Shown here: in pieces, positions 1,451-56,026 of the stretch
Numbering within the stretch: the stretch's first letter is position 1
Layout: every line of letters begins with the position of its first letter
Sequence record: NC_047884.1
Reading direction: 5' to 3' (one strand)
DNA length: 64,000 nt
From: Escherichia phage saus132
Notes under the pieces: model-generated
The model's input: the letters and a program-made list of their open reading frames with translations, nothing else
What the model was told of the DNA's origin: nothing
Databases searched by the model: none
Made by a program: the position numbers and the translations under genes

Positions 1451-1484
1451 CAGCCAGGTTGCTAGTCGACCTGGCTTTTATTTT
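1451..1484 (+). terminator. Rho-independent terminator after nrdD
   Basis: Hairpin CAGCCAGGT-loop-ACCTGGCTT followed by a T-rich run. Confidence 0.6.
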
Positions 1485-1486
1485 AT

Positions 1487-1515
1487 TTGCTTTCGAGCTA
1501 AAACTTAGGTATAAT
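1487..1515 (+). promoter_or_regulatory. Early sigma70-type promoter
   Basis: TTGCTT, 17 bp spacer, TATAAT; upstream TTTATTTGCTTTC resembles the PN25 -35 region; RBS AAGGAGGG before ATG 1533. Confidence 0.5.
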
Positions 1516-1532
1516 TGTACAAGGAGGGCTAA

Positions 1533-2219
1533 ATGGTACGAAGGAAGTTAGATAAAGACACTATCAATAAAGATTTAGAGCCTAGAAGAATTAAGCTAAT
1601 AAGTGAGTATTCTGGAATCCTTAATAAAGGCACATTCATATGTAGTGTAGGTCATACATGGGAAGCTACTGTTAATAATGTAAGGAATAGCAAATCTGGC
1701 TGTCCAATATGCGCAGGTACTTTTAAACTTACTAAAGATTCGGTAAATGAAGGGTTACGTAGTAGGGGTATTACTCTTATTGGAGAGTATAAAAATAATG
1801 CTACTAAAACTCTTTTTGAATGTGAGCATGGGCATAGGTGGGAAGCCACAGTAGGCAATGTAAAGAATAAAAATTCTGGGTGTCCTGTGTGCGATACTGA
1901 TTGGAATACCCCTGGTTTTATATACATTATGTGTAGTAGTATGGGAACTAAAATAGGAATTAGTATCTCTCCTGAAAGACGGTGGAAAGAGATAGTTAAA
2001 AGCTCCAATATACTAGATTTATATATTTTTGGTGTCTATTCAATAGATTCTGGTACCAAATCTAAAAGTAGGTCTATCGAGAAACAGACTCATGAATATT
2101 TTTCAGAATATAGATTAAAGTATACAGGATTTGCTGGATGTACTGAATTCTTTGATATATCTCCCATAGCCGTAGAAAAGCACTTAATTAATAATGGGTG
2201 TATAAAGGTAGAAAAATAA
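1533..2219 (+). CDS. Putative GIY-YIG-like (T5orf172-type) nuclease with two N-terminal zinc-ribbon repeats
   Basis: Duplicated HxWEATVxNV...SGCPxC repeat; C-terminal GFIYIM...KIGIS segment; very AT-rich island. Confidence 0.5.
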   Translation: MVRRKLDKDTINKDLEPRRIKLISEYSGILNKGTFICSVGHTWEATVNNVRNSKSGCPICAGTFKLTKDSVNEGLRSRGITLIGEYKNNATKTLFECEHGHRWEATVGNVKNKNSGCPVCDTDWNTPGFIYIMCSSMGTKIGISISPERRWKEIVKSSNILDLYIFGVYSIDSGTKSKSRSIEKQTHEYFSEYRLKYTGFAGCTEFFDISPIAVEKHLINNGCIKVEK

Positions 2220-2284
2220 ATAAAGTACTTGCTTATATTACTTTTATTTGATATTATATTATTATAAATTAGAGAGGAGGGTGT

Positions 2285-2644
2285 ATGAAATTAAAACCAT
2301 TTATTGTTGTATCTAAACTAGGGCATTATCACGTAGGAGTAGATACAATTCAGGAAGCTATTTTTGCTGCTACAGGTGATTACTCATTACTAGAAGGTAT
2401 TGGGTATCCTACATTACTAGGAGACTTCGTAGAGCAAGAACTAGATATTACTGTCTATAATCCTATATATGAAGAACCTGAAGACTTAAAAGAGACTCTA
2501 GAATTTGTATACTGGAACCACTTACAAGTATTTAATGTTACCTCTAATGGCACAGAGGATTTCTCTTCTGCTATTAAGTATTATATTAAACAAGTTTACT
2601 ATGATTATTTCTATGAGGATATTGGAGCGGAGCTAAAAGTATGA
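2285..2644 (+). CDS. Hypothetical protein
   Basis: ORF with strong RBS GAGAGGAGGG upstream. Confidence 0.6.
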   Translation: MKLKPFIVVSKLGHYHVGVDTIQEAIFAATGDYSLLEGIGYPTLLGDFVEQELDITVYNPIYEEPEDLKETLEFVYWNHLQVFNVTSNGTEDFSSAIKYYIKQVYYDYFYEDIGAELKV

Positions 2645-2844
2645 AAAACGTAAAACATCTTAAGTATCGCTTAATTTACAACGGACGTATGGAAATAGAA
2701 GATCTAGCTCAGCTAGCGATCAATTCAGATGAAGTTACAGTTCGTGCTTTGTCCATCGAGAAGCTGCGTGCTTCTTACGAAAATCGTATTATGGAATTAG
2801 AGGAGAAACTTTATGGCATTCTCGAGTCAGAAGCTACCAGGTGA
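2641..2844 (+). CDS. Hypothetical small protein
   Basis: ORF start overlaps upstream stop (ATGA). Confidence 0.45.
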   Translation: MKNVKHLKYRLIYNGRMEIEDLAQLAINSDEVTVRALSIEKLRASYENRIMELEEKLYGILESEATR

Positions 2845-3058
2845 AAATGTTAGTCTTATTGATCTGAATAAGCTCAATCAAGAGTTTCAGGGAGTTTTAA
2901 TGAAGCACTGGGAAACTGGTTATAAGGATGGTGTTGAATCCTGTGCTACTATGCTAGAAGTTCTTGCTGATAACCTAGTGGAGAAAGGCAATAAAGAATT
3001 AGCTGAGCTGTTAGACAGTATTGGGCAAAACTTTAGAGAACAGGTGAAAAATGCGTAG
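2813..3058 (+). CDS. Hypothetical small protein (start uncertain)
   Basis: ORF in operon context; no motif recognised. Confidence 0.4.
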   Translation: MAFSSQKLPGENVSLIDLNKLNQEFQGVLMKHWETGYKDGVESCATMLEVLADNLVEKGNKELAELLDSIGQNFREQVKNA

Positions 3059-3902
3059 ACTAATCGTTGTTAGTGGTGCAGGTTTGAGTGTAGATAGTGG
3101 TGTTCGTGCTTTCCGTACTGATACTGCTAGTGGGAAATCCTTGTGGGATGAGTACGATCTAGAGGAAGTATGTAGCTTGCCTAACTTTGAAGCTGGCTTC
3201 CGTCGCTTCTGTGGTGAAGATGATCCTAACTACTTCAGTGCTCGTTTCCCTGGCATTGATGAAGATGGTAACGATCTGTATCTCAAGACTCATGAGTTCT
3301 ACAACATGCGTCGTCAGGAATTACAGACTGTTGAGCCTAACATTGCCCATCTGCGAATTGCAGAATGGTTCCAGCGTTATGGTGCGGATAGCGTGAAGAA
3401 CTTCACTACTAACGTTGATGACCTTCTGGAGCGCGCTGGTATCCCTCGTGATGAAATCATCCATGCTCACGGATACTTGAAAGAGGTGATCTATCGTCGG
3501 GGTCGCAATCAAATCATCGAAGATGTTGGATACACTGCAATTGTTCCTGAAGATTACGAATGGGTAAAACCAAACGTGGTGTTCTTTGGTGAAACAGCTC
3601 CGTGGTACATGGGTCAGATCAACCTGTTTGATACGCTTACTAGCAATGATATGGTTATTGTGGTGGGTTGTAGCAACCAAGTTATCAACTTCAACTGGGA
3701 ATTATTCCCTGCTGTATGTCGTGGAACTAAGATGATGGTTGTTAACCCTCAAGTTCGTTATGATGAACAGCTTGAGTATGAGAAACGTGGTGTTACTGTA
3801 TGGCGGGCTGGAGCTGCCGAAGTTTTTGGTAACAAGAATTTCATTGGTCAAGTAGAAGCCTTTATGGAAGGAACTATTTATGCACCGCAAGAGCATGTGT
3901 GA
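3051..3902 (+). CDS. Sir2-family (sirtuin-like) NAD-dependent enzyme lacking the zinc-ribbon cysteines
   Basis: Motifs VVSGAGLSVDSGVRAFR (GAGxS), TTNVD, catalytic HG, VVFFGE, VVGCS; no CxxC pairs between HG and FGE. Confidence 0.7.
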   Translation: MRRLIVVSGAGLSVDSGVRAFRTDTASGKSLWDEYDLEEVCSLPNFEAGFRRFCGEDDPNYFSARFPGIDEDGNDLYLKTHEFYNMRRQELQTVEPNIAHLRIAEWFQRYGADSVKNFTTNVDDLLERAGIPRDEIIHAHGYLKEVIYRRGRNQIIEDVGYTAIVPEDYEWVKPNVVFFGETAPWYMGQINLFDTLTSNDMVIVVGCSNQVINFNWELFPAVCRGTKMMVVNPQVRYDEQLEYEKRGVTVWRAGAAEVFGNKNFIGQVEAFMEGTIYAPQEHV

Positions 3903-50375: not shown

Positions 50376-51692
50376 TTATTTCCCACGGGAAATTGAGTAA
50401 ATTCCATAACGCAGTGCGTCACAAAGGTGAGAGTTCGCATCATGACGTGGTTTTTCACGTGATAATTTCTCTTCGCCCTCCTGGAAGTCCCACTTGTAGT
50501 TCGCTAGGGCGTGGATCAGTGAGGTACATGAAGCATCTACGATGATCTTACCTTGCTGGAACAGTGCTTGTAGGCATGCCAGACCATCTAGGACAGATTT
50601 CTTAGCAGGAGCAGAAGCGATTTCATGTTCATATGCTAAGTCCTGACGGAACTGAGCAGCAGCGGAGTCTACAAATATACGATCAACGTTATAACGATCT
50701 ATACAGTGCTGTATGTAAGCAGCGTGTTGAGCTGTAGTCTTTTCAGCCTGCTGATACTCTTCTAATACGTAATAAACATCAGTATCATAGTGGTACTTGA
50801 TAGTAAGAACTGCTGTAGGATCACGATAACCAACGTCGATACCAAGTAATGTTTCGAAAGCCTCATCATCTTTAAAGAAGTGACGCATACCCTTGAGGTC
50901 TTTAACATGTTCGATAGCATTGAAGGTGTCAAAGATCTGACCTTCGAATACGGAGAAATCAGCCTCATATTCTTGACGAAAATAGTTTTTACTAACAGTA
51001 CGACGCGCTTCTTCGATATCGTTCAGGTCAGCGCGTGGGTTATCACGATATGTACCATGAATAGATACCCAGTTAGGTAACGTTTCATTAAATCCTTTCT
51101 CGTAGAACTCTTTGAACCAGTTACCACCACGAGGTGTAGAAATAAATAGAGCTTTAGAGTTTGGTTTATCTAGGGTAGGACGTAACTGAATATCGAAAGC
51201 TGCACCACCAACGTCGGAAATCGCTGCTTCGTCAAAAATGATGAAGTCATATGAACGACCAACCGCGGAGTCAGCCTGTGCCGCAGAAGCCAGCTTAAAG
51301 AGAGAACCATTCGCTAGTTCAATCTCCTTATCTTTGGCGTTCTCACGTTCAGTCTGTAGTCCATATTTCTTAATAAGACCACGAATCTGAGACCAACCGA
51401 TGTTAGCCAGTGAGTAGTTAGGTGCAACTACTAGCACCTTCACATTAGGCTCCAGAAGCTTCAGGAACCCAAGTGTATATGCGATGAATGACTTACCTAC
51501 ACGACGTGATACACATGCAGTTACGAAACGGTGTCTAGGATCTTCCAGCGCGTTAATAATTGCAACCTGAGGGGCATTAGGTGTAATTCCCTCTTGTGCT
51601 AGGATGCTAGAGACTGGTAGACGAAAGAATCGTTTGTCAATACCAAAGTCAATAACATCTGTGGTGTTAATATAATCTCTAGAGACTTTCAT
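50376..51692 (-). CDS. Terminase large subunit
   Basis: 438 aa; Walker A CVSRRVGKSF; C-terminal nuclease acidic motifs DVGYRDPT and DSAAAQ. Confidence 0.9.
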   Translation of the reverse strand: MKVSRDYINTTDVIDFGIDKRFFRLPVSSILAQEGITPNAPQVAIINALEDPRHRFVTACVSRRVGKSFIAYTLGFLKLLEPNVKVLVVAPNYSLANIGWSQIRGLIKKYGLQTERENAKDKEIELANGSLFKLASAAQADSAVGRSYDFIIFDEAAISDVGGAAFDIQLRPTLDKPNSKALFISTPRGGNWFKEFYEKGFNETLPNWVSIHGTYRDNPRADLNDIEEARRTVSKNYFRQEYEADFSVFEGQIFDTFNAIEHVKDLKGMRHFFKDDEAFETLLGIDVGYRDPTAVLTIKYHYDTDVYYVLEEYQQAEKTTAQHAAYIQHCIDRYNVDRIFVDSAAAQFRQDLAYEHEIASAPAKKSVLDGLACLQALFQQGKIIVDASCTSLIHALANYKWDFQEGEEKLSREKPRHDANSHLCDALRYGIYSISRGK

Positions 51693-52174
51693 TATCTCTT
51701 ACCTCCTCCTGCTAGAGCGGTAATAAGATTCATATAGTTTTCGTCACCACTTCCAGCAATAATATTATTCTGAATATTAGTCTGGTTAGCCGGAGTACGG
51801 GCTGCTGCCTTCACTTTCTCCAGTTCTACCATCATTTTCATTTCTTCCATCTTCATCTTGTGCGCCTTCCAGAGAATATCCATGATATCCTGGTCAGAAC
51901 CCATGCCAGTTTCTTCGAGTTCTTCCAACTTGCGTTTGATAACTTCATCAAGAACTCCGAATAAGCGGTCACGATTACGGAAGCCGCTTTCCATAAAGAT
52001 ATCGTTGAGATAGTTTTTAACTTCCCCACGATTCATTATATCACGAAATGCAATCTCGGACATTCCAAGACTACGAGCGGCGGCAGGAACATCACTACCA
52101 CACTGTAAATAGGCTTCAATAACATCCATGCCTTCGGGAGACATGAGATCGGGAACTAATACATCATTTGCCAT
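51692..52174 (-). CDS. Putative terminase small subunit
   Basis: 160 aa ORF coupled upstream of TerL; HTH-like [16 protein letters not shown]. Confidence 0.55.
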
Positions 52175-52184
52175 ATATCCTCCT

Positions 52185-53966
52185 TTAGGTTAGGCGTTGA
52201 ACTGTTACACGTAGTCTTGGCAAGAAAACAGCTGCCGCTTCTGCAGCGTGAATGATAACACCCAACTCAACGTTGCCATTACCAAGGTTTTTAATAGTAT
52301 AAATATATCCGTTCCTACGGAAAGCAAACTCATCAGGCCTACTAGCCCAAGTTTGTGTATAACTATAGGAAGTTGTACTGTGATAAGGTACTAGATATCC
52401 AGGTGGCAGAGTAAGAATCTGGTGGAATACACCATCACCAGCAGTATAACTTTGTTGCCGTCTACCTTGTACCTGCCAAGCACTACCTCCGTAAGTACGC
52501 ACAGGCATTCCAGCAGTATTAAGATTACCCATAATAACTTCAGTAGTTAATATAACAGTAGAGTGAGCATTCGGTAATCCCAACCAAACTGTGGCCAAAG
52601 GTGTGTAGAAGTCACCAGCACCAGGGTAGGATGGAGTTATATCGTCCCCTACATAAGTACTTGCAACGTTGCCTGGGAATAACCTGAGGGGTACAGTACT
52701 AGGACTCCAGACAGGTCCATGTTCATTACCAATGGAGTTGGTATTAGTATCTACATACCATTGTTTACCTACACCAAATTTATATAAGCTAATTTGAGAA
52801 GCTGCACCCCCATAGTTAACAGGAGACCACAATCCGCCATTACTAGAGCCGATAAATTCACATCGTGCAGTATTATCACCAAAAACTCCGGTATACGCAG
52901 CGTTATTACCAACATACTCCATATCAGGGCGATAGCCTAAGTTTCCGAAAGCATTCTGGTTAATAAATTTATAGCCTGTATTTGGTAGGCTAACACCTTT
53001 AATAGTAAAGTTAGATGGAGATATTAAGATATCTGAACCGGTAAATGGATTACCAGAAACTCCCATACTACCATTAGAATAGCGCAGATTTAGTACATAC
53101 CAAATAACCTTAGTTGGCGTAACGTTGTACCAGTCCTGTACATATACCTTTCTAGTGGCTTGCGCAGCCATATTAGTTGTAGAACCCCTACAAACGTATA
53201 CTTTAGTAGGAAAGGAGGGGGATTGGTAGTTAATGTTTACGTTATCTGGTAGTACGCCTTTTTTACCTGCGAAGCCACGAATATTAGAACTACAAACATA
53301 AAACCAATCATGGCCTCTACCAGCAGAACCAATAGGCGCCTGCCAGTTAGGATCCCAATAATCAGCGTTACCACCATCTAAAGGAACAGTAGAGACACCA
53401 GTTGGAAAACCCATAAGACTCCAGGCTCTGGCAATGGCTTCACCAGCAGGAACACCACCAGGTCTAAAGATCTGGAAACCAGAGGACTGTAGTAAACTGC
53501 CTCCAGAACCTTGCCTAGCAATAGATTCCTCATGACCAAGACCACCATTATAGATATAAGTACCATGAGCTAAACTATCCCCGATCGCAAAAGCAGATGT
53601 TACAGATAATTCAGCACCAGCACGTGGTGGGTCTTCAAAAAATGATAAGAACTGGCCAACCTGAGATTGAGTACCATTGAGGAATCCTCTATGAGTACCG
53701 TTTATCTCAATAGCAGTTAATATAACTCTACCTGGATCATTGGATTTAATATTTATAATATCCCAAGGCATCTGAGTAACAAAGTATCCATTACCTGCAT
53801 TACCTAGGGCTGCTTCATAAGTCCCATCAACCAGGACGAAAGGCATATCGGAGTGGAAAATACTATTAGTATTTGGAGAATAGTGCTCACCAGTATCACC
53901 ACCATTAGCAGCATTTAGAGATAATACAGTTTTACCATCACTAAATTTTCCTGCGAAAAAACTCAT
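52185..53966 (-). CDS. Receptor-binding protein (T5 pb5/oad-like)
   Basis: N-terminus MSFFAGKF...[20 protein letters not shown] resembles remembered pb5 start; Gly/Asn/Tyr-rich; divergent lipoprotein gene alongside. Confidence 0.7.
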
Positions 53967-53991
53967 ACAATCTCCTTCTTTAAAAATGTAT

Positions 53992-54020
53992 TTGCTTAGA
54001 TCCCTCTATTTTGCTATAAT
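53992..54020 (+). promoter_or_regulatory. Early-type promoter driving the lipoprotein gene
   Basis: TTGCTT, 17 bp spacer, TGCTATAAT, then ATATTTATAAATTAAACAGAGGAAC. Confidence 0.55.
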
Positions 54021-54049
54021 ATATTTATAAATTAAACAGAGGAACGATT

Positions 54050-54316
54050 ATGAAAAAGTTACTAGCTATCGTAGTTGCAGCAGTAGTGTTGACTGGTTGT
54101 GTACCAGCTCCCGAGCCATTCTGTAAGGCATACGTGAAGTCTTATGGACATGTTGGTGAAGAACACTACGCTTTAGATATTCGAGAAGCACGTACTGTGG
54201 GCTACCGATTCCCTAAAACTCAGTTACGCACTAAGTTTGGGTGGTGGGATTTGTCACAGTTTGATCTCAAATATGGTGATTGCAAATTTAAACTAGAACA
54301 ATCTGGTCACTTGTAA
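54050..54316 (+). CDS. llp: Lipoprotein, putative receptor-blocking superinfection-exclusion protein (Llp-like)
   Basis: Signal peptide with lipobox MKKLLAIVVAAVVLTGC; small size; divergent from the receptor-binding protein gene. Confidence 0.7.
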   Translation: MKKLLAIVVAAVVLTGCVPAPEPFCKAYVKSYGHVGEEHYALDIREARTVGYRFPKTQLRTKFGWWDLSQFDLKYGDCKFKLEQSGHL

Positions 54317-54389: not shown

Positions 54390-54600
54390 AATGCAAGATG
54401 AAGAAAAGTCCTTTCAGGAACCTGTTAACTTTGAAATAAATCCCAGGAATAAAAAGCAATACATGATGCAATTGATGAAATCATTCAAGACGTCATAGAA
54501 GATACAGTAGAAGACGTGATGGAACATCCTTCTTACTAGAAGAATCCGGCTTCGACGAAGTAATGGATCTAATCGGGACAGTCGTAATGGTTCGTGCAAT
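54390..54600 (+). pseudogene. Possible decayed gene remnant
   Basis: Three consecutive short protein-like frames (MQDEEKSFQEPVNFEINP..., ...AIHDAIDEIIQDVIEDTVEDVMEHPSY, ...EESGFDEVMDLIGTVVMVRAIARVFQ) separated by frame changes. Confidence 0.3.
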
Positions 54601-54779
54601 TGCTAGGGTATTCCAAATACCAAGACTATAGGAGAAGCAAAGAGATGTCAGAAGACAACAGAAGAAAGAACAGACGTGGGGAAGTGTACGAAAGTTGGAT
54701 AAATAGTTTCGGATTCGGAACTGTATTATTCTTTATCTTTGTACTCTTTTGGTTAGCGGCTATGGCGGGGTGGTTATAA
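54594..54779 (+). CDS. Small membrane protein
   Basis: C-terminal hydrophobic helix FGFGTVLFFIFVLFWLAAMAGWL. Confidence 0.4.
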   Translation: MQLLGYSKYQDYRRSKEMSEDNRRKNRRGEVYESWINSFGFGTVLFFIFVLFWLAAMAGWL

Positions 54780-54882
54780 TGGAAGTAATAATTATTGCTT
54801 TACTAGTTGTGGTAATTATAGAGCAGTGCATCTTAGATAACCACTTAGCTCGTATCGAACGTAAGCTGCGGGGAGACAAGTA

Positions 54883-55128
54883 ATGTTTAGTTTTGTAGCT
54901 ATCTTCATTATCGGGGTACTTGCGGGAATCTTCGGAACACTCGGGGCTATTAACAAACATCGTGAATATATTGCGGGAGTATCGCGGGAGCTTTCGGAAA
55001 GGGAGCGGAAGTTTGCGGAGAAACGTGCGGAGTTTGAGCGAGAATGGTCTGATGGATCTCGGGCGTCGCGGAGGAGGTTTCGTATGTCAGAATCAGGAGA
55101 CAAGCCAGTAGACCGGTGTTCTTCCTAA
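54883..55128 (+). CDS. Small membrane-anchored protein
   Basis: N-terminal helix FSFVAIFIIGVLAGIFGTLGAI then charged tail. Confidence 0.45.
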   Translation: MFSFVAIFIIGVLAGIFGTLGAINKHREYIAGVSRELSERERKFAEKRAEFEREWSDGSRASRRRFRMSESGDKPVDRCSS

Positions 55129-55291: not shown

Positions 55292-56026
55292 TTAGGCAAC
55301 TTTTAATTTATCAATGAATTGTTGCGGAGTGGTACTATATTCCGCGCGTTCTTCCTCGGTCATACCTTCCCAACACATTTTTAAACGTTCGGCTAGGAAT
55401 TGATAATCGTTATCATCATCAAGCGATTCATCAATAAAGGTTTCACCGATCAATGTTACGCCGATTGATAGGATATCATTAACGGCTTGAGCGTCCAGCG
55501 TTTTAAATCCAGCACTTGCCGCCGCCGATAATACACCTTTATGATCATCAATCATTGTAAAATCAGCGTTAGGATATAGCTGTTTAAACAGTTCAAAGTA
55601 ATAAGATTTATATACAGCGTCTTTGCTGTGATATATTTCGCTAACCTTATTTGCATCAAAGTATTTATGTAATGTATCGCGGGAAAATACGCGAATATTA
55701 CTATTTCCGCGCCCTCGCAAGCCTTGTTTACGCAAATAAAAGTAATCGCTTTTAGACATTAAGCGAGCGGTACAAATAATATTTAAAGTATTTGCATCAT
55801 TCATGCACTGGCGCATATATTCAACCAACGGCAATAAAGAATCCTGCATAATTAAATCATGTTTACAGGCTTCGCGGAAATACTTATTTAAATCTAAATT
55901 CCCGTTATCATCAAAGCAAGGCGCTACACGGTGGAAAGAATTAATGATAGTTCCGTCTAAGTCCCAAATCATAACGCGGGAAATATGCGGGAAAGTGCGG
56001 GTAATATTCATATTGACTTGATTCAT
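55292..56026 (-). CDS. dmp: Deoxynucleoside-5'-monophosphatase (HAD family, T5 Dmp-like)
   Basis: 244 aa; N-terminal MIWDLDGTIIN (DxDGT). Confidence 0.75.
   Translation of the reverse strand: MNQVNMNITRTFPHISRVMIWDLDGTIINSFHRVAPCFDDNGNLDLNKYFREACKHDLIMQDSLLPLVEYMRQCMNDANTLNIICTARLMSKSDYFYLRKQGLRGRGNSNIRVFSRDTLHKYFDANKVSEIYHSKDAVYKSYYFELFKQLYPNADFTMIDDHKGVLSAAASAGFKTLDAQAVNDILSIGVTLIGETFIDESLDDDNDYQFLAERLKMCWEGMTEEERAEYSTTPQQFIDKLKVA

Follow-up and report, generated by a model that had tools for sequence, protein, structure and literature searches.

A divergent receptor-binding protein and lipoprotein cassette of predicted BtuB specificity in Escherichia phage saus132

Organization and distribution of the cassette

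We describe a divergent gene pair in a window of 64,000 nucleotides of the genome of Escherichia phage saus132 (NC_047884.1), the window being the whole stretch of DNA that was analyzed. The pair forms a cassette of 2,132 bp (positions 52185-54316) that joins a receptor-binding protein (RBP) gene on the minus strand to llp, a plus-strand gene for a small lipoprotein (Llp). From the evidence set out below, this cassette very probably serves an Epseptimavirus for host recognition and receptor blocking, with BtuB as the receptor.

At the DNA level the cassette matches 234 phage records, most of them from phages of Salmonella and Escherichia, and in 104 records the identity reaches 95% or higher. 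Such recurrence indicates that the open reading frames (ORFs) are not chance occurrences. Five GenBank "Bacteriophage T5-like" records of isolates from food (chee130_1, poul149, chee158, cott162 and saus176N) carry it with 100% identity. In the record of T5-like chee130_1 (MF431736; genus Epseptimavirus, genome of 121,986 bp) it occupies positions 110171-112302, and the window corresponds to bases 57987-121986. Many of the matching records label the pair as a receptor-binding protein and a receptor-blocking, superinfection exclusion or 'Cor' protein. These labels are inconsistent between records, the lipoprotein being a 'hypothetical protein' in MF431736 (P1301_0154) and in several near-identical records and a 'Cor superinfection exclusion protein' in the RefSeq copies.

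At the protein level, an RBP at least 60% identical to that of the window was found in 397 phage records and a homologue of the window Llp in 396, figures that indicate joint inheritance of the two genes. In the 135 records whose RBPs are more distant, Llp proteins of other types are presumably encoded. The cassette is thus an already known and abundantly sequenced BtuB-type RBP/Llp module of T5-like phages, and it represents the commonest RBP/Llp type among them. The original prediction had singled out the locus as a divergent cassette; its divergent transcription is borne out, but as a module it is not unusual.

The RBP gene lies directly upstream of the genes for the small (terS) and large (terL) terminase subunits, on the same strand. 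This gene order is common to the window, to T5 (oad, T5.156 terS, T5.155 terL) and to DT57C, and it has been described as a general arrangement (PMC8594841, bioRxiv 10.64898/2026.04.02.716166).

Table 1. Coordinates of the cassette and its flanking terminase genes in the window
Feature	Position	Strand	Basis
RBP gene	52185-53966	-	ORF, 593 aa (amino acids), ATG start
llp gene	54050-54316	+	ORF, 88-aa precursor
Lipobox LTGC (L14-T15-G16-C17)	54089-54100	+	sequence
Divergent intergenic control region, 83 bp	53967-54049	.	sequence
RBP ribosome-binding site AAGGAG, 5 nt before ATG	53972-53977	-	read from sequence
llp promoter, -35 TTGCTT + 17-nt spacer + extended -10	53992-54020	+	sequence, alignment
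-35 TTGCTT	53992-53997	+	sequence
Extended -10 TGcTATAAT	54012-54020	+	sequence
llp ribosome-binding site GAGGA, 6 nt before ATG	54039-54043	+	read from sequence
Terminase small subunit gene, directly downstream of RBP gene	51692-52174	-	ORF
Terminase large subunit gene, after small subunit gene	50376-51692	-	ORF

A receptor-binding protein of the pb5 family

The minus-strand protein belongs to the pb5/Hrs/Oad family of receptor-binding tail-tip proteins of the Markadamsvirinae, an assignment that is solid. The family phrog_4815 ("receptor binding tail protein") matches residues 1-593 with E = 1.3e-281, and phmmer matched its N- and C-terminal parts to the T5 pb5 chain 8b14_B (E = 9e-46); a second T5 pb5 entry of the PDB, 8a8c_B, was matched by sequence at the same level. 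PF26860, taken from precomputed Pfam assignments, is present in all 38 RBP homologues, and our local copy of Pfam-A and NCBIfam returned no family for the RBP.

The structural comparison agrees with these matches. An AlphaFold2 model of the RBP, derived with 31 homologues, reached a predicted local distance difference test score (pLDDT) of 91.8 and a predicted template modeling score (pTM) of 0.91. The pb5 fold is elongated and has a large central beta-sheet. Foldseek comparison of the model with the PDB recovered the two pb5 chains (8b14_B, E = 1.6e-31; 8a8c_B, E = 4e-29; template modeling scores of 0.62-0.68), and these were the only PDB matches with E below 0.001. The termini were aligned for the RBPs of the window, BF23, DT57C, T5 and S124. 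The N-terminus reads M-x-FFAGK..., with the first 40 residues 57% identical to those of T5 pb5, and the C-terminal ...QRLT is common to all five proteins. The pb5-like protein that the original prediction had placed on the minus strand is thereby confirmed by its ORF, its family and its fold.

The original prediction had further put T5 pb5 at about 640 aa, which is correct (640 aa), and had reasoned from the shorter length of the window protein that its receptor may not be FhuA. The window RBP is 47 aa shorter as a result of many small insertions and deletions; in the alignment it lacks, for example, the counterparts of T5 pb5 residues 177-184, 246-257, 282-292 and 562-573, the last of which overlap the FhuA-binding loop L4 (residues 570-590). 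The conclusion that the receptor is not FhuA holds up on the grounds given below, but the argument from length is weak. The FepA-type RBP of S124 has 637 aa, so that length sets the BtuB type apart from the FhuA and FepA types without identifying a receptor.

Assignment of the receptor

The RBPs of the subfamily form three clusters (BtuB, FepA and FhuA), and position in a cluster predicts the receptor (PMC8594841). According to the same paper BtuB is the target of most members of the subfamily, EPS7 and S132 being among those in which this was shown; for EPS7 the use of BtuB is cited second-hand (PMC8594841, PMC8624392). Use of BtuB has also been reported for BF23, DT57C, SPC35 and phiR2-01 (PMC4728585, PMC8624392) and for S114, S116, S126 and S133 (PMC12980165). 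Furthermore, genome-wide screens described in a 2026 preprint yielded 23 BtuB-binding Demerecviridae whose RBPs are about 30% identical to pb5 and are encoded upstream of terS (bioRxiv 10.64898/2026.04.02.716166).

The original prediction had called for alignment with pb5 proteins of known specificity, and that alignment places the window RBP in the BtuB clade, far from identity with T5 pb5. By sequence identity it clusters with the RBPs of BtuB-dependent phages, being 96.0% identical to that of S116, about 94% to EPS7, 75.5% to BF23 Hrs and 65.9% to DT57C, and it stands apart from the FhuA type (T5 pb5, 34.8%) and the FepA type (S124, 33.0%). The closest relatives include the RBP of Bas28 (IrmaTschudi), which is 99.8% identical and differs solely by D197N, and those of beppo, STyj5-1 and SP76, which are 100% identical and for which no receptor is stated. 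For Bas28, the text of its description does not allow one to confirm whether the receptor is experimental or predicted. Since the window RBP shares 65-96% identity with RBPs of phages in which dependence on BtuB has been shown experimentally, we infer BtuB specificity, and we predict BtuB as the receptor with high confidence.

Some observations weigh against this assignment or limit it. RBP residues 151-250 are just 52-66% identical to the same region of BF23 and 40-52% identical to that of DT57C, so that details of the contact with BtuB may differ. The literature searched contained no experiment on this phage and no direct assay of an EPS7-type Llp, and the paper describing chee130_1 names none of BtuB, FhuA and llp (PMC5816814).

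The lipoprotein Llp

The plus-strand ORF encodes a lipoprotein of 88 aa, and its LTGC lipobox is as the original prediction had read it. The N-terminus, MKKLLAIVVAAVVLTGC, is a lipoprotein signal peptide (aa 1-16) that matches LPAM_1, with predicted cleavage between MKKLLAIVVAAVVLTG and CV. The lipidation cysteine is predicted to be Cys17, with valine at position +2. Under the +2 rule of Escherichia coli, valine at this position predicts sorting to the outer membrane. G16 and C17 are invariant in the alignment of the Llp family.

The cysteines C25 and C78 likewise show no variation among 16 Llp sequences. The pair matches the Cys11-Cys58 disulphide of T5 Llp (mature numbering), which ties the termini of that protein together (PMC9586334), and by this analogy C25-C78 is a predicted intramolecular disulphide in Llp.

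Llp is 100% identical to the Bas28 protein and 98.9% identical to the EPS7 protein annotated as "receptor-blocking protein". It shares 68.2% identity with BF23 Llp and 67.0% with DT57C Llp, all three being of 88 aa, and 20.8% with the 77-aa T5 Llp. BF23 Llp is reported to block BtuB, and cloned DT57C llp lowers the plating of BF23 and DT phages more than 100-fold, leaving T5 unaffected (PMC4728585). These relationships support the view that the small protein is a receptor-blocking lipoprotein (lytic conversion, superinfection exclusion) of the BtuB type, as judged from its sequence. The family is narrow. In 5.8 billion proteins it amounts to 15 clusters at the 90% identity level, just 5 of which were added by a profile search for further relatives. 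Searches of Pfam-A and NCBIfam returned no family for Llp beyond the lipid-attachment motif.

The relationship to T5 Llp is more distant. T5 Llp, BF23 Llp and window Llp all match phrog_1119 over their full length (window Llp, E = 1.2e-23), but alignment of the Llp family with T5 Llp by hhalign was limited to the signal peptide and the first cysteine, and we consequently claim no sequence homology of the mature domains from it. PDB searches by sequence gave no relevant match for either Llp alone or the family profile. In the AlphaFold2 model of Llp the block-mean pLDDT is at least 90 from residue 21 to the end; five strands are followed by a C-terminal helix, and structural neighbors suggest a small SH3/Tudor-like beta-barrel. 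A Foldseek search of the PDB with this model found nothing; the best fold match of the model is T5 Llp (8a60_B and 7qjf_A compared), a modest match over a 60-residue domain. The comparison of the modeled fold supports a common fold of Llp and T5 Llp without proving it, and it speaks in favor of a similar mode of action.

The PHROG label of family 1119 is 'Cor superinfection exclusion protein'. Cor proteins of T1, phi80, HK022 and related phages are, like Llp, small outer-membrane lipoproteins that exclude phages dependent on TonB-dependent transporters, and T5 Llp is reported to be about 20% identical to Cor, disulphide included (PMC9586334). Cor, however, acts on FhuA and is encoded in another genomic context. 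Window Llp is not filed as Cor, a name that comes from the PHROG label only.

The divergent control region

The start codons of the two genes are separated by a short spacer that was aligned with those of BF23, DT57C, EPS7 and T5 (mean column identity of 84%). Within it, the -35 and -10 hexamers of the llp promoter are invariant across the window, EPS7, BF23, DT57C and T5. The BF23 record (DQ097178) annotates minus_35 and minus_10 signals of llp at the same positions, and in the T5 record (NC_005859) the hexamers lie inside an annotated promoter. A consensus promoter scan of the window did not list it, because its -35 hexamer matches TTGACA at 3 of 6 positions. From its sequence we regard the element as a strong sigma-70 promoter that is homologous to a described one. 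The lipoprotein thus has the early-type promoter of its own that the original prediction had ascribed to it. The architecture of receptor-blocking superinfection exclusion, also proposed there, likewise finds support in this conserved divergent promoter and in the homology of Llp to BF23 Llp.

Comparison with known systems

The cassettes of EPS7, Bas28 and Salmonella Epseptimavirus phages have essentially the same genes, gene order and promoter as the window, with no difference of substance. The hrs-llp pair of BF23 (Mondigler et al. 2006; DQ097178) and the rbp-llp pair of DT57C show the same divergent architecture, the same llp promoter hexamers and an Llp of the same length with cysteines in the same positions. 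In these phages the receptor is BtuB and blocking by Llp has been shown experimentally. BF23 and DT57C belong to Tequintavirus, whereas the window phage is an Epseptimavirus.

The oad (pb5)-llp locus of T5 has the same order next to terS and terL, a divergent llp and the conserved TTGCTT/TATAAT promoter, and it encodes a small disulphide-containing outer-membrane lipoprotein of the same PHROG family as window Llp. The T5 receptor, however, is FhuA, whereas that of the window is inferred to be BtuB, and the two lipoproteins are 21% identical, with a likeness past the signal peptide that is seen only as a modest match of folds. T5 also supplies the structural templates for the system: 8a8c and 8b14 (FhuA-pb5), 8a60 (FhuA-Llp) and 7qjf (Llp) (PMC9586334).

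Among members of the BtuB clade, Llp is the slower of the two proteins to diverge; in EH1 and BD13, for example, the RBP is 91% and Llp 100% identical. A recombination point between the RBP gene and llp, proposed for DT57C, agrees with this pattern (PMC4728585).

In addition, two records of related phages showed irregularities at this locus. The EPS7 record (CP000917) carries an RBP gene that is unannotated and split over three frames (1453-3231 of the stretch examined; three tblastn pieces), and these breaks probably stem from sequencing errors in that record, which dates from 2008. In S124 (MH370375), the gene annotated as 'receptor blocking protein, T5 Llp-like' (1067-1500 of the stretch examined) has no signal peptide or lipobox; it is the homologue of a frameshifted ORF that follows llp in the window (see below). 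The 122 bp between this gene and the FepA-type RBP gene of S124 contain no lipobox ORF, and the FepA-type cassette in this record appears to lack an adjacent Llp.

Proposed mechanism and alternative explanations

In the homologous systems the RBP binds its receptor irreversibly, and Llp alone inactivates the cognate receptor (PMC4728585, PMC9586334). By analogy, the window RBP would be the monomeric tip protein of the straight central tail fibre and would bind the TonB-dependent vitamin B12 transporter BtuB irreversibly, leading to DNA ejection. Divergent transcription from a host sigma-70 promoter would then allow llp to be expressed soon after DNA entry and without phage late functions, a timing suggested by the host-type promoter and by the T5 literature. 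Early expression of T5 Llp is attributed to Decker et al. 1994 by a citing paper (PMC4728585). The Llp precursor would be cut between LTG and C, lipidated on Cys17 and sorted by the Lol system to the inner leaflet of the outer membrane. There it would bind BtuB and make it unable to bind the RBP. Blocking of BtuB has been shown for BF23 Llp and DT57C Llp, and for window Llp it is expected by analogy. Superinfecting phages that depend on BtuB would be excluded as a result, and progeny would not be wasted on receptors in debris.

How this block would be achieved is suggested by T5, whose Llp acts from the periplasm and binds the FhuA plug in a non-native state, with EL7 and EL8 of FhuA folded inward so that they clash with pb5 (PMC9586334). 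A TonB-box mutant of FhuA escapes T5 Llp, which suggests that an intermediate of the transport cycle is captured (PMC9586334). Since BtuB is another TonB-dependent transporter, the same logic may be extended to it: Llp would probably dock on the plug from its periplasmic side, at a stage of the transport cycle in which the plug has a non-native conformation, and would close the extracellular loops allosterically.

The explanation that competes most closely leaves this action unchanged and shifts the benefit, which would lie mainly in the protection of progeny from abortive adsorption to BtuB in debris, with exclusion being secondary. Both roles have been proposed for the Llp of T5 and BF23 (PMC4728585, PMC9586334, PMC12980165), and pb5-type binding produces a very stable complex (PMC9586334), so that debris would act as a phage sink. 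Sequence does not separate the two roles, however, and an early, host-type promoter also fits exclusion during infection. We consider the primacy of debris protection plausible, its chances falling somewhat short of even.

A second alternative accepts BtuB as the target but not the route, Llp blocking it, for example, by occlusion from the outside or by hindering its insertion instead of by jamming the plug and reverse allostery. The confinement of the hhalign similarity with T5 Llp to the signal peptide and the modest fold match are compatible with this idea, as is the fact that the PDB copy searched held no BtuB-Llp structure and indeed no complex of BtuB with any RBP-type or Llp-type protein. 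Against it, FhuA and BtuB are both TonB-dependent transporters, each having a plug as well as a TonB box, and Van den Berg et al. propose that the mechanism is general (PMC9586334). We therefore judge a different mode of blocking unlikely. Equally doubtful is the broader suggestion that the RBP and the EPS7-type Llp have co-diverged, giving a spectrum of exclusion and escape unlike that of BF23, or that the BtuB-Llp mechanism departs from that of FhuA-Llp. The thought of co-divergence arises from the distance of Llp from BF23 Llp and the divergence of RBP residues 151-250 from BF23 and DT57C (40-66%); examples, were it true, would be adaptation to the BtuB of Salmonella or an RBP able to bind BtuB even when a BF23-type Llp blocks it.

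It is far less probable that the RBP uses another outer-membrane receptor (FhuA, FepA or some other), with the lipoprotein as the blocker of that other receptor. At least two receptor switches have occurred in the pb5 family (PMC8594841, bioRxiv 10.64898/2026.04.02.716166), and specificity might change within residues 151-250, the most variable part of the protein. Yet EPS7 and S116, whose RBPs are so close to that of the window, are both reported to depend on BtuB, and the RBPs of DT57C and BF23 still share BtuB at 71% identity to each other. With RBPs of the FhuA and FepA types the window RBP shares just 33-35% identity, and the window Llp belongs with that of BF23 rather than that of T5. 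The FhuA and FepA readings were rejected.

Finally, that the lipoprotein is some other outer-membrane lipoprotein of phages, such as an o-spanin-like lysis component, is scarcely credible and was rejected: o-spanins also are small lipoproteins with a lipobox and cysteines, features that Llp has in conserved form, but Llp is homologous to BF23 Llp (68%), for which blocking activity was demonstrated, belongs to phrog_1119, which is not a spanin family, has T5 Llp as its best fold match, and is encoded beside the RBP gene and not in a lysis cassette, the window ORFs including no overlapping or adjacent i-spanin partner.

Significance and neighboring features

As a discovery the cassette matters little; the module is already annotated in many records and has been studied since BF23. 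Its use lies in correct annotation, both of the lipoprotein that MF431736 lists as hypothetical and of a receptor that the describing paper does not name. From the assignment to BtuB follow predictions of host range and of cross-resistance shared with E colicins and with other phages that use BtuB, and it informs the design of cocktails from food-derived phages of Salmonella and E. coli.

Downstream of llp, an ORF of about 103 aa that is intact in S124 (orf155) and EPS7 (AGC_0169) survives as a remnant at positions 54392-54703 (plus strand). It carries two frameshifts (+2 near 54444 and -1 near 54520) that are identical in Bas28, and its likeness to S124 runs over three frames (62%, 91% and 89% identity). 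Because the frameshifts recur in independent isolates, we take them to be a feature of the lineage and not a sequencing error.

Between llp and the right terminal repeat, small ORFs of 61, 44 and 81 aa with hydrophobic stretches (54594-55128, plus strand) resemble T5.159-T5.162, the single-transmembrane proteins encoded after llp in T5; one of them is annotated in MF431736 and the rest are not. The right terminal repeat itself extends from 55284 (MF431736 position 113270) to 64000, the end of the window and of the GenBank record, and a dNMP monophosphatase gene (55292-56026, minus strand) lies at its start.

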